64,000 bases of DNA from sequence record OZ035773.1, one strand, 5' to 3'. The notes under the pieces were generated by a model. That model ran no database searches, was not told the DNA's origin, and saw only the letters and a list, made by a program, of their open reading frames with translations. Every line of letters starts with the position of its first letter. The first letter of the stretch is position 1. The translations under genes and the position numbers were made by a program. Below, in pieces: positions 48,534-60,878 of this stretch. The DNA is from Justusliebigvirus VEcB.

Positions 48534-48752
48534 TATTTTGAAAATTTTTATTTTTATAAAAAGGGGTGTGGGTTTCATGTACGGAAATTCACCCTCTGCA
48601 CAGTATACCCAGAGTAAGTATTATTCTATACTCTGTTAATAAAGTATTTAATTTGTTTGTTGGACTATGGTATCTGATCTTTAAAAGGCATACTATCTCT
48701 TAACTACTACTTATAACAGAACAGTAAAATCATTTTTATAAAAAGTACAAAA

Positions 48753-48949
48753 TTATTTAAAGTTTTTACAGATTTTTGGGTACAAATTTTGAAAATGAAA
48801 AGTTCAAGTTTGGTCAAAATTATTTAAAGTTTTTGTACGTATTTCTATCCAGATTTTGAAAATGAAAACTTCAATTTTTTAAAAATTCCCCAGTTTATTT
48901 AAAGTTTTTTTGCCTTTTTCCGTAGAAAAATCAAAAATGAAAAGTTCAA
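48753..48949. repeat. Three direct repeats of about 70 bp (iteron-like)
   Basis: Each unit carries TTATTTAAAGTTTTT and TTTTGAAAATGAAAAGTTCAA (48753/48786, 48820/48853, 48894/48931). Confidence 0.7.
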
Positions 48950-48972
48950 TTTCGTGTTTTTATAGGTGTGTT

Positions 48973-49086
48973 AATGAGAATCATTTTCGTTTGTAAATGA
49001 GAATCATTATCATTTAATTATGTAAGTGATAATCATTCTCAGTAAGAGAATGAGAATCATTAGCAAATGAGAATTTTTCTCATTTA
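48973..49086. repeat. Cluster of five AATGAGAATCATT-type 13-mers (Fur-box-like), partly arranged as inverted repeats
   Basis: Copies at 48973, 48996, 49026 (GTGATAATCATTCTC), 49049 and a palindromic AAATGAGAATTTTTCTCATTT at 49066. Confidence 0.7.
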
Positions 49087-49346
49087 GAGAATAACGCGCA
49101 GGGGTGGTGTTTGTCTCGCGCTCCCGTGTCCCCTCGCCATACAATAAGAATAGCATAACCAACAACAAAAGCAAGCGATTATTTTTATCTTTACATTTCT
49201 TTACAAATTTATTTTAGACGAGCCACCGGCGATCAACCTTCCAACCAGTGCCCCCTGGTATGTTAGCCCCGCCTTTACGCCGTGGGGGTGGCGTTTCCTC
49301 TTCTGTATGTAAAACAGTATAAGCCCGATCCCTGGGCTTGTCAAGA

Positions 49347-49613
49347 TTATTTTTTGTTTTCTTGCCAGGATAGGACACCTAACCAAAAATACATGTCGCC
49401 CCGCGCCCCTGGCGGGATCTTGCTTTCCCCGCCGCCACTGCAAGCCCATAGATAACCATTAGCGAACGGATCAAAATGATCTATTTCTTCCACCTTATGA
49501 TCGCCCAGGTTGAGAACGGTTTCAACCTTTAAGCCCGTTGCGCTTGCTACCTGGTGCACCGTGCCGCCTTGCCAGCCTAATGAGTGCATGAGGTGTAGAG
49601 TAGGATTTGTCAT
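49347..49613 (-). CDS. Hypothetical small protein on the minus strand
   Basis: ATG at 49613 with AAAGGG RBS; preceded by a promoter plus stem-loop cassette of the same architecture as the plus-strand array. Confidence 0.45.
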   Translation of the reverse strand: MTNPTLHLMHSLGWQGGTVHQVASATGLKVETVLNLGDHKVEEIDHFDPFANGYLWACSGGGESKIPPGARGDMYFWLGVLSWQENKK

Positions 49614-49635
49614 GGTATCGCCCTTTCTTTGATGT

Positions 49636-49690
49636 GCGCCCTGGTTGGCGCGGTAGAAAGATAATAGCCCTTTCCTTTATAGATAGCAAG
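49636..49690 (-). promoter_or_regulatory. Promoter plus leader stem-loop cassette (minus strand)
   Basis: TTGCTA -35 (49685-49690), 18-nt spacer, TATTAT -10 (49661-49666), GCGCC/GGCGC hairpin (49636-49651). Confidence 0.5.
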
Positions 49691-49724
49691 CAAAAAAGAA
49701 ATGAAAAAAAGATTAAAAAAGGGG

Positions 49725-49753
49725 TTGACGTTCCTCACCTGGTAGCGTATTAT
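49725..49753 (+). promoter_or_regulatory. sigma70-like promoter, divergent from the 49636-49690 cassette
   Basis: TTGACG (49725-49730), 17-nt spacer, TATTAT (49748-49753). Confidence 0.5.
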
Positions 49754-49880
49754 TCATCTTGTCGAGGGGGGCGAGGCACAACGACAATAAACAAAAGGAG
49801 GGCGCAATGTAGGACGGGCAAAGGTGAGGATCTCCACAATCCACCGTCACAATAACATTACTTATAAAAGGTTGATAACG

Positions 49881-49976
49881 ATGATCAAGAAAGAAAACAG
49901 CTTGACGGTTGGAACGATTAACGCTATCATTCTTGCCGTTCCATTTTGGGTTGTAGTTGCGGTTATTATTTTTTAA
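49881..49976 (+). CDS. Small hydrophobic peptide (31 aa), not in the ORF track
   Basis: ATG preceded by AAAAGG; MIKKENSLTVGTINAIILAVPFWVVVAVIIF, a single TM helix. Confidence 0.35.
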   Translation: MIKKENSLTVGTINAIILAVPFWVVVAVIIF

Positions 49977-49984
49977 AAATATTC

Positions 49985-50040
49985 TTGACAACGTTTTTTA
50001 ATCTGATAAGATGTATCACATAGGGCGGCAATAGTGCCGC
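49985..50040 (+). promoter_or_regulatory. Promoter plus leader stem-loop cassette
   Basis: TTGACA, 16-nt spacer, TAAGAT, then CATAGG-GCGGCA-atag-TGCCGC hairpin (50025-50040), SD and ATG at 50065. Confidence 0.65.
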
Positions 50041-50064
50041 TCATAACAGAAGAGAGAAATAATC

Positions 50065-58400: not shown

Positions 58401-58697
58401 GTGTTTAAAGGTGACTTGGTTGAAGTTAGAACAACCGAAGGTTATAGCGACGATTATAAATGCGAGATTCATTTACACAACTGGTACACGGGTAAAACTT
58501 ATGCGCTGAATCATGCGTTTATCGGCAAGGTTGAATATAGAGAAATGATCGACGAAGAAACCGGGCAAGATTTTAGCGATCATGTTTATATTCGTTCAGA
58601 AACATTAGCCGAACGTTTGATCGAGAAAATGAAAGCAAAAAATAAAATTAATTTAGCTCATTGGATTGATATAACAAACGATCCAGCTTATAAGTAA
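58401..58697 (+). CDS. Hypothetical small protein (98 aa)
   Basis: GTG-start ORF; followed by a terminator. Confidence 0.4.
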   Translation: MFKGDLVEVRTTEGYSDDYKCEIHLHNWYTGKTYALNHAFIGKVEYREMIDEETGQDFSDHVYIRSETLAERLIEKMKAKNKINLAHWIDITNDPAYK

Positions 58698-58712
58698 ATA
58701 ACATTTCATACC

Positions 58713-58739
58713 AGGGCGCTTATTGCGCCCTTTCTTTTT
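58713..58739 (+). terminator. Rho-independent terminator
   Basis: AGGGCGC-ttatt-GCGCCCT hairpin followed by TTCTTTTT. Confidence 0.65.
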
Positions 58740-58944
58740 ACCTAAATAAAGATGATAGCTTTTACCTATCAAAAACGTTCACCGAAAAAAGTGAATAGAT
58801 CGCGGTATCGAGCTAATCAAGGAGCAGATGAACAACCATACCATGAAGATCATAAGGCGTTTACAGCGTGTTTTAGACCGTTTATTTTTAATTTCTTCAT
58901 GCAACTATAGGACAAAAACAGTCTTTTTCTTGTCTTTCCTCTTA

Positions 58945-59017
58945 AATGATAATCATTCTTATTTATAGCTGATTATTTATGCAATAAACTGCATAATGCA
59001 ATAATGATAATCATTCT
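58945..59017. repeat. Two copies of AATGATAATCATTCT (Fur-box-like 13-mer)
   Basis: Copies at 58945-58959 and 59003-59017. Confidence 0.65.
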
Positions 59018-59387
59018 TAACTTAAGACCATCTAACTTATAAAATAATAAGTTATCTAACTAAATTAAAGCTAATTATCTTACTTTTATTTATAACATAC
59101 TGTTACTATCTTATTGATAACCTTATATTAAACAACAATAATCAATGTAAATCATTACTAAGCTAACTATAATCTATCTAACCATTAAAACTATAACTAT
59201 AATCTATCGAATTGTTGCACAAAGTAACTATTAAATTGTTAGTAACATTACTAAATAATTCACATCTTATCTATTTATGATCTAATCTTTACCTCCCTAT
59301 TTATTACCTAAATAACCATTTCATGTAGTAATCATTTCATACAATAACTATAACAAGAAATATAATTCGCAAGCGTATCATTAGCAG

Positions 59388-59520
59388 CCTATGCCGGACA
59401 CATAGGCGGCTAATAATAACGCAACTACACCCCCCCACATAATAACTATCGCCGATAGTTATTATTTGTGTTTATGTAGCTTGCAACAATTGCAAGCGCA
59501 ACAATATACATGGTATATTG
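59388..59520. repeat. Cluster of four palindromes
   Basis: GCCTATG...CATAGGC (59388-59407); AATAACTATC-gcc-GATAGTTATT (59441-59463); GCTTGCAA-caa-TTGCAAGC (59479-59497); CAATATAC-atg-GTATATTG (59502-59520). Confidence 0.7.
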
Positions 59521-59618
59521 TATTCCCTTACATTGTTGCGGTGCGTTATTATTAGCTAATGTTTAGAACATTGGCTATAATATAAGCTGCATATAATAAG
59601 CTATACAATAATAAACAT

Positions 59619-59654
59619 AATGAATAATGACACTGAAATGAATAATGACACTGA
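59619..59654. repeat. Tandem 18-bp direct repeat (AATGAATAATGACACTGA x2)
   Basis: Two exact adjacent copies. Confidence 0.7.
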
Positions 59655-59793
59655 TGATCATAATGCGCCACCCTCCAGGGGCGCTATGTGAACACAAAGA
59701 AATCTTTCTTGTCAAGAAAAATATCATCATTATTGCGCAAAATTATTTACATCTGAATAGATGATTTTTCATACTATTGCCCCCATATAACTT

Positions 59794-59854
59794 ACTATTT
59801 GTTGCAATGTATTCCCCTATTTGTTGAGCATAGTTATAGCCTATTTGTTGAGCC
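59794..59854. repeat. Three copies of CTATTTGTTG
   Basis: At about 59795, 59817 and 59841, spaced 22-24 bp apart. Confidence 0.6.
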
Positions 59855-59926
59855 TACTTTCTTAAAAGCGCAATAAATCAGAATTATCTTGATTTTTAGG
59901 TAGTTTTATAGTATAGAAAATATGCA

Positions 59927-59942
59927 AATGATAATCATTATC
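59927..59942. promoter_or_regulatory. Fur-box-like site (AATGATAATCATTATC)
   Basis: 16/16 identity to positions 4-19 of the E. coli Fur box consensus GATAATGATAATCATTATC. Confidence 0.4.
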
Positions 59943-60118
59943 AGCTATCTTCCACGGGTGGCACTATTTCACACCAGATCATTTCATTTGGCAAGGTGTA
60001 GATAGATGTTTAGACTTGCCAAGTTATTGATTTACTTAGAATTTATCTGTTTTGTTGTAAGTAGAGCCTTTTTTGCTCAGAAAATAATCAAAAGTCTTAT
60101 AAGTCATTGAATGATAAT

Positions 60119-60151
60119 GCAAATGATAATTATTCTCATTGATATTTGAGG
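60119..60151. repeat. Degenerate tandem Fur-box-like motifs
   Basis: GAATGATAATGCAAATGATAATTATTCTCATTG. Confidence 0.5.
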
Positions 60152-60512
60152 GGGACGGTCGGGAAAAATCGGGGGGCGCTGAAAATCGCGTTAAGCACCT
60201 CTCGCAAGCGAGCAGTATTTTGCGGCAAGTTATTGATATTATTGACTTTACGCTTATGAAAAGGGGGTGTGTCGAAATAAATCGGGTATACCGGAAAATT
60301 TTTGTGGCATAGATATTTATTTGTCTATATTATGTACAAAGGGGTGTGTTAAAAATATTAGGTATATATAGAATAATTGATAGGGAAATCCTATACTAAT
60401 TCCTCCATTAATGATGTTTCTATGTTGCTGTTCTTGTAATAGATGAAAAGACGCTGTATGATGTGTGGCATGAAACGTAATCCTACAACGTAATCTTATA
60501 AAGGAGTCTGAT

Positions 60513-60878
60513 ATGTGTGTTCCTCTTAGCAGTCCACTGCTGTTAGAATTTTACAAAGCATGGATGGAAGATCATTCCTCAATGCATCGTGAGAATGTTG
60601 GTTTGTGTAATTGCCTTATGGATTACCTGGCAACCACTATGTCAAAGAAAAAACCTACGGAAGAAGATATAGAACATTTCAAGATGGTTCGTAGCAAAAC
60701 GCTGGAAGAGATGAAACTGCAATTCACGTGTGCTGGGCTATCCTCCTTCCTACCCTTTAATTATGATCTTCTGTGTTATGAAGATGAAGGTAAGACACAT
60801 TCTTGCCATACCAACCCAAAGAGATTGCAGTGGGTGAAAGACAGAATCGAAGATGCAAATAATGCTTGCATTGAATAA
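60513..60878 (+). CDS. Small protein, paralog family member 1 (121 aa)
   Basis: AAGGAG RBS; shares LLxFYxxW ... GLCxCLxDxL ... RxQWVxDRIxD with 62575-62943. Confidence 0.55.
   Translation: MCVPLSSPLLLEFYKAWMEDHSSMHRENVGLCNCLMDYLATTMSKKKPTEEDIEHFKMVRSKTLEEMKLQFTCAGLSSFLPFNYDLLCYEDEGKTHSCHTNPKRLQWVKDRIEDANNACIE

Follow-up and report, generated by a model that had tools for sequence, protein, structure and literature searches.

The window, i.e. the whole 64,000-nucleotide stretch of DNA analysed here, was assigned by sequence comparison to a Justusliebigvirus (phi92-like) E. coli myophage of the subfamily Stephanstirmvirinae, and the region considered below (58700-60520) is 91-95% identical to its counterparts in about 47 Justusliebigvirus genomes. 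The gene-free, AT-rich stretch that a first-pass annotation had singled out is genuine, with a G+C content of 0.296 over 59001-60000. In annotated relatives this gap is flanked by phi92 gp248, the final gene, and by gp001/gp002, the initial genes, which means that the phi92 reference genome is linearised within it. The gap and its contents are as follows:

58401-58697, plus strand: homologue of Phi92_gp248, a T4 gp30.8-like protein, the last gene left of the gap
58698-60512: gene-free gap of 1.8 kb, between the Phi92_gp248 homologue and the next plus-strand gene
58713-58731, plus strand: intrinsic terminator from a terminator scan, at the end of the upstream early-gene array and following the gp248/gp30.8-like gene
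59030-59360, plus strand: A+T-rich, G-depleted tract of 330 bp (79% A+T, 4.8% G, 16.3% C)
59376-59564, minus strand: nested folded element of 189 nt, with a closing stem, two or three hairpin arms and an adjacent hairpin
59619-59654, plus strand: tandem 18-mer AATGAATAATGACACTGA, two copies, 100% identical
59795-59850, plus strand: three exact copies of CTATTTGTTG (59795, 59817 and 59841), reiterated 5' flanks of the left cut of the direct terminal repeat (DTR)
59851-60193, plus strand: 343-bp DTR as a single collapsed copy, left boundary TGTTG|AGCC, right boundary CGCGTTA|AGCACC
from 60513, plus strand: next gene right of the gap

The PATM record carries an annotated terminator at the place equivalent to 58713-58731. 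No tRNA was found in a scan of the 64-kb window, and the gap gave no Rfam match at the gathering threshold, the best matches at a permissive E-value (13-29 bits) belonging to unrelated families. Elsewhere in the window, Rfam recovers a group I catalytic intron (RF00028; 31586-31860, minus strand; 72.5 bits) as a full-length model match.

Genomes of the Stephanstirmvirinae have DTRs at their ends (PMC12695924), and comparison with the genome termini of relatives, proposed alongside the first-pass annotation as a check, places the ends of phi92, BME3, FKP3 and WPEC4 at or inside 59851-60193. The phi92 record (FR775895.2) annotates two identical 343-bp repeats, PHI92_DTR-L and PHI92_DTR-R, which align with the window without gaps at 328 of 343 positions (95.6%), between the same flanking genes. 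The left boundary reads …CCTATTTGTTG|AGCCTAC and the right one …AATCGCGTTA|AGCACCTC, the bar marking the cut. For BME3, PhageTerm called a 342-bp repeat, and the block truly repeated in that record corresponds to 59851-60192 of the window; the annotated "DTR-L" coordinates of BME3 disagree with this block, and sequence identity was used instead. The 317-bp PhageTerm repeat of FKP3 falls inside the predicted DTR interval with boundaries 12-27 nt off, an offset that is treated here as imprecision, and the WPEC4 record terminates at …CGCGTT, matching the right boundary. Homology with these relatives thus predicts the genome ends to the nucleotide, at 59851 and 60193, and the interval with the flagged repeats would be the right-hand subterminal non-coding region, just inside the right DTR copy in virion DNA. 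The suggestion that the cluster marks genome ends or a packaging site is thus supported by position, the phi92 DTR abutting the last CTATTTGTTG copy, and the palindromes are not four separate sites; to this extent known biology, in the form of the annotated phi92 terminal repeat, accounts for part of the finding.

Eight phages, belonging to three or more lineages, share invariant boundary sequences, TGTTGAGC on the left and TCGCGTTAAGCA on the right. All loci long enough to include both boundaries contain TGTTG|AGC and CGCGTTA|AGCA, nearly always separated by 321-344 bp, with 412 bp in one metagenomic lineage. The two boundaries have the core GTTR|AGC(A/C)C in common, hence one terminase specificity presumably recognises and cleaves both through this core. 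Pattern scans of IMG/VR and of metagenomes gave only four and eight loci, two of which were chance matches (L018 and L021). Several public records are assembled inconsistently at the DTR locus: the BME3 record (PP239276.1; L004/L005) has 788 bp at both ends, with the junction in a hairpin loop and Ns nearby, and the FKP3 record (PP895363.1; L007) contains the repeat region a second time internally, at a period of 500 bp.

The three spaced copies of CTATTTGTTG pointed out in the first-pass annotation are the only ones in 64 kb, compared with a chance expectation of 0.33, and one of 100 shuffles reaches three. Copies 2 and 3 (59817 and 59841) carry the full CCTATTTGTTGAGC, and the third abuts the left terminus, given that the phi92 DTR maps to 59851-60193. 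Copy number varies among close relatives, with one in arall, two each in phi92 and PaulScherrer and three in the window, which compared with phi92 has an additional 24-bp tandem duplication that doubles CCTATTTGTTGAGC. Tandem modules, one to three in number and with a period of 56-81 bp, precede the left boundary in Phapecoctavirus, FKP3, Tr1 and metagenomic lineages, each module consisting of a G-box (GGGGGCGAA), a small palindrome of variable sequence and TGTTG|AGC. Two to three whole modules are seen in independent lineages, at loci L026 (nepoznato), L024 (WPEC4), L007 (FKP3), L008 (Tr1), L016 and L023, and in these the sequence of the small palindrome differs in each copy. The CTATTTGTTG copies are best read, on sequence comparison, as reiterations of the sequence preceding the left terminal cut (…TGTTG|AGC). 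Reiteration of the module is thus recurrent, with only the terminal copy, and not copy number, conserved, which suggests that the module has either been duplicated repeatedly or been selected to supply several sites for cutting or binding.

The tandem 18-bp repeat is likewise real, consisting of two exact copies, and is present twice only in the window and PATM; phi92, arall, PaulScherrer and BME3, i.e. four of the five relatives compared, have it once. This single-copy state marks the tandem as a recent, neutral slippage duplication with no conserved role.

The four palindromes reported in the first-pass annotation exist and are stronger than was noted there, a closing stem of 15 bp having been missed. 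The parts of the element are:

59387-59393 / 59401-59407: palindrome GCCTATG/CATAGGC, an adjacent hairpin outside the closing stem
59409-59423 / 59542-59556: closing stem, a perfect 15-nt inverted repeat enclosing three of the four palindromes
59439-59451 / 59453-59465: palindrome ATAATAACTATCG/CGATAGTTATTAT
59480-59486 / 59490-59496: palindrome CTTGCAA/TTGCAAG
59501-59509 / 59513-59521: palindrome ACAATATAC/GTATATTGT

Because the inverted repeat encloses three of them, the four palindromes form one nested structure, and they are the arms of a single conserved fold of about 180 nt. Folding of 59370-59565 gives z-scores of -7.1 (plus strand) and -7.0 (minus strand), with none of 200 shuffles as stable, and with DNA parameters the z-scores are -8.5 and -9.5. 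Within the gap, conservation is highest in the block 59377-59556, which remains about 80% identical in Phapecoctavirus, where the flanks have diverged beyond alignment, and in every lineage the fold lies 290-475 bp inside the right DTR. A covariance model has a single match in the window, on the minus strand at 59376-59564 (177 bits), and finds no second copy of the fold in the whole 64 kb. The stems are long (15-21 bp), near-perfect and A-T-rich, and as such look as much like DNA palindromes as RNA helices.

Covariation was examined in an alignment of 17 sequences with a plus-strand model of 43 pairs, in which 98.9% of cells are paired. Double changes are found in 13 of the 43 pairs (49 cells) and in 17 pairs of the corresponding minus-strand model, a level reached in none of 500 shuffles; slid controls give one to four pairs with the plus-strand model and one to five over the two models. 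The compensatory double changes are spread over at least three lineages; the closing stem, the arms of which are 118 nt apart, accounts for four compensated positions, one of them a lone A-T to T-A swap in the close relative arall.

The two strands differ in how they accommodate the remaining variation. Read as the plus strand, the fold contains no G.U pairs and seven of its eight unpaired cells are A.C, whereas on the minus strand none of 816 cells over 48 pairs is broken and G.U occurs at nine pair positions, so that every wobble pair of the fold falls on that strand. A long minus-strand hairpin, P2', covaries at bases that form the loop of the plus-strand CTTGCAA hairpin and contains invariant U.G pairs, and a 20-nt insertion in Justusliebigvirus, located at the tip of P2', is itself a hairpin. 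The minus strand is also the more stable in all 23 sequences, RNA parameters giving a margin of 11-26 kcal/mol and DNA parameters a small one of 1.3-8.6 kcal/mol; part of this energy gap reflects base composition, since the z-scores do not differ between the strands. Base composition could also contribute to the confinement of wobbles to the minus strand, and a strand-biased mutation pattern could be a source of the asymmetry. There is selection on the fold for base-pairing within a single strand, and the wobble pattern points to the minus strand.

Considering what kind of site this might be, the flagged repeats are three unrelated things, viz. terminus-flank copies (CTATTTGTTG), an 18-mer duplication and the palindromes of a fold. 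The first-pass reading of an iteron-type replication origin would make the 18-mer and CTATTTGTTG initiator-binding iterons beside an A+T-rich unwinding element, and direct repeats do accompany the A+T-rich tract at 59030-59360 in a gene-free region, such a tract not being specific to origins. This reading is not supported, as the direct repeats are not conserved in copy number: the 18-mer is single in the four relatives named above, CTATTTGTTG ranges from one to three copies of which only that at the terminus is kept, and neither repeat exists as such in Phapecoctavirus. We consider it hardly credible. A double-stranded role for the palindromes, as binding sites or cruciforms for a small terminase, a repressor or an initiator dimer with co-evolving half-sites, draws on the invariant blocks GCTAATAAT and GTAGCTTGCAA..ATTGCAAGCG and the recurrent (A)TCATTAGCA, which suggest sequence-specific recognition, and on the proximity of the palindromes to the packaging termini. 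The distance between the compensated arms of the closing stem and the swap in arall argue for intramolecular pairing rather than for such half-sites, a change of protein specificity being implausible on the time scale of close relatives; the imperfections are strand-asymmetric, and the hairpin tip tolerates an insertion that is again a hairpin. Binding of a protein to duplex DNA is thus an unlikely account of the palindromes.

A more serious alternative is that the fold acts as single-stranded minus-strand DNA, either as a primosome or primase loading signal on a displaced strand, arising from a leftward fork or D-loop that starts at the right DTR, or in a T7-style fold-back, which would duplicate the terminal repeat during concatemer processing. 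For a leftward fork from the right end, the minus strand would be the one that lags or is displaced. The strong folding with DNA parameters (z -8.5) speaks for this alternative, and the long, near-perfect stems and the subterminal position of the fold in every lineage are fitted as well by DNA as by RNA. At 189 nt, non-coding, extensively paired and apparently strand-specific, the fold also falls within the 150-250 nt format of sso/PAS/ssi signals, and the small variable-sequence palindromes directly before the terminal cut sites suggest a possible use of DNA hairpins here. Scanning the minus strand around the fold for sigma-70 promoters and terminators gave promoter-like matches at chance level, which were therefore not used to assign a transcript, and no terminator, a result that favours DNA over a transcript. 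G.T wobbles, however, add little to the stability of DNA, so that RNA accounts more readily for the invariant wobble positions; moreover, a single-stranded intermediate is undocumented for these phages, and a three-way junction is unnecessary for a plain fold-back primer. Overall, a single-stranded DNA element appears the less probable reading of the fold, albeit one to be taken seriously.

The joint explanation to which we give somewhat better than even chances combines copies of the terminus flank, a neutral 18-mer and a cis-acting minus-strand fold at the right genome end. The fold would act in cis while its minus strand is in single-stranded form, and we slightly favour a leftward transcript over displaced DNA as that strand, both because the invariant G.U pairs and the series U-A, U-G, C-G are typical of RNA and because in the adjacent tract such an RNA would be G-rich and its template C-rich. 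RNA-DNA hybrids are favoured by G-rich RNA on a C-rich template, as at the ColE1 or T4 origins. A leftward transcript would fold into the junction and run on into the G-depleted, A+T-rich tract at 59030-59360, where a G-rich RNA on the C-rich template could form a stable RNA-DNA hybrid, and the hybrid might prime or open the DNA for leftward replication or concatemer maturation; a role of the fold in either process at the right end is possible. The tract contains short CTAAC/ATCTA-type repeats, and its composition, rather than its sequence, is kept in six other lineages (G 7.5-11%); judged by composition, it would be well suited to Rho loading (as a rut-like region) where transcripts run rightward, or else to R-loop formation or unwinding where they run leftward. 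A literature search found no transcriptome study, and minus-strand promoter candidates picked by eye upstream of the fold were dropped, as they are not conserved between genera.

Phages of the phi92, phAPEC8 and rV5 types are widely used as broad-host-range therapeutic candidates, while their origin, packaging signals and early control are unmapped. The fold, conserved across the Stephanstirmvirinae, provides a concrete cis element to mutate in the search for an origin or a concatemer-processing signal, and the placement of the DTR helps to correct the linearisation and annotation of such genomes. The phi92 record annotates only the repeat, and the GTTR|AGC core, the reiterated left modules and the upstream fold are absent from it; the covarying, strand-biased subterminal fold and the reiterated terminus modules appear undescribed.

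Several known systems provide partial parallels. The concatemer junction of T7 and T3 contains pacB/pacC and the promoter phiOR, and a hairpin intermediate has been proposed there for duplication of the terminal repeat. Fixed ends, a short DTR and a cis palindromic or transcribed element just left of the repeat in the concatemer are shared with the present locus, but there is no sequence similarity and no T7-type RNA polymerase in this phage, and the T7/T3 junction has a simple inverted repeat whereas here a branched fold of 180 nt lies 290-475 bp from the repeat. Single-strand initiation signals, viz. the sso of rolling-circle plasmids, the minus-strand origins of M13 and G4 and the primosome assembly sites of the phiX174 type, resemble the fold by layout, being non-coding, 150-250 nt long, multi-hairpin, self-paired and apparently strand-specific; those replicons pass through an obligatory single-stranded stage, whereas the present phage is a double-stranded myophage of 146 kb. 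R-loop or RNA-primed origins, such as ColE1 RNA II and T4 oriF/oriG, would be matched on the minus strand by a folded RNA upstream of an A+T-rich tract with a C-rich template, a likeness that is purely one of layout; here no promoter was identified, and dependence on RNase H or Pol I is not known.

A comparable arrangement occurs in the Vequintavirinae. A tblastn search with the upstream gene for synteny in this subfamily returned mostly T4 gp30.8 homologues and was useful only for finding the Mydovirus phage DP, which has an annotated DTR of 514 bp with a right boundary (…CCGTC|TAGCACC) resembling CGTTA|AGCACC. About 240-450 bp left of its right repeat, DP carries a nested palindrome of different sequence (z -11), closed by a stem of 21 bp or more and divided into three branches, and across six Mydovirus and Seunavirus genomes this element shows nine covarying pairs and conserved minus-strand U.G. 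The covariance model of the Stephanstirmvirinae fold scores only 11-14 bits on DP, which makes the Vequintavirinae element an analogue rather than a detectable homologue; it may be regarded as such by position and architecture, homology not being demonstrated.

The first-pass annotation had also proposed a multi-operator control region. Sites resembling the Fur boxes of E. coli (GATAATGATAATCATTATC) do occur in the gap, outside the flagged repeats:

58944-58962 (approximate): weaker copy of the following site
59000-59018: Fur-box-like site, 16 of 19 positions matching GATAATGATAATCATTATC
59924-59942: best Fur-box-like site, 17 of 19, inside the DTR and just downstream of TTGATT-N17-TATAGA (promoter-like by eye)
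60119-60137: Fur-box-like site, 15 of 19, about 60 nt before the right DTR boundary and followed by the invariant GATATTTG

Seven matches with three or fewer mismatches are found in the 64-kb window, where 0.03 would be expected, and seven of the eight with four or fewer fall in two control regions. Across genera, including Phapecoctavirus, they keep their placement with respect to the fold and the right boundary: a counterpart of the site at 59000 is found in the other genera 360-470 nt to the left of the fold, and the position of the site before the right boundary is conserved in all lineages examined. Similar sites surround the repeat of the Mydovirus DP. The likeness to Fur boxes consists in 15-17 matches of 19 clustered in two control regions, and phage variants such as AATGAGAATCATTATC resemble natural Fur operators; Fur boxes belong to iron-regulated promoters in E. 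coli, whereas those described here, Fur-box-like by sequence, lie in the terminal repeat and the early-region leader of a virulent phage. A phage protein rather than host Fur could be their reader. The sites nevertheless raise a testable link, suggested by their sequence, between host Fur and early or terminal functions of the phage. At its widest, the RNA reading would comprise an undescribed family of minus-strand structured RNAs of about 180-220 nt, situated just inside the right DTR in all phi92-, phAPEC8- and rV5-related myophages. These RNAs would serve in cis either to mature concatemers or as an origin of the RNA-primed or R-loop type, and host Fur would gate the promoters flanking them. 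We put this forward as a speculation that is more probably wrong than right; if true, it would tie the onset of phage replication or of early transcription to host iron status.

The second repeat set mentioned in the first-pass annotation, on the other side of the early array, was also confirmed:

48748-48949: three direct repeats of about 67 bp, at the head of a 1.5-kb region (48534-50064)

The region 48534-50064 is about 98% identical in relatives and more conserved than the terminal gap. Directly after the three repeats come four or more Fur-box-like sites in an array (48970-49064), and degenerate copies extend as far as about 49090. A Fur-controlled structured RNA at 49085-49345 was considered and dropped, its folding being no better than that of shuffles (z -0.5). 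The sequence AAAGGGGTGTG occurs only three times in 64 kb (48560, 60261 and 60338), a count reached in four of 100 shuffles, and each copy closely precedes an early-gene array; the motif may belong to a phage-specific promoter or to a regulator site. Two near-consensus sigma-70 promoters, recognised by eye at 49727-49755 (TTGACG-17-TATTAT) and 49985-50013 (TTGACA-17-TAAGAT), are probably early promoters of the plus-strand array.
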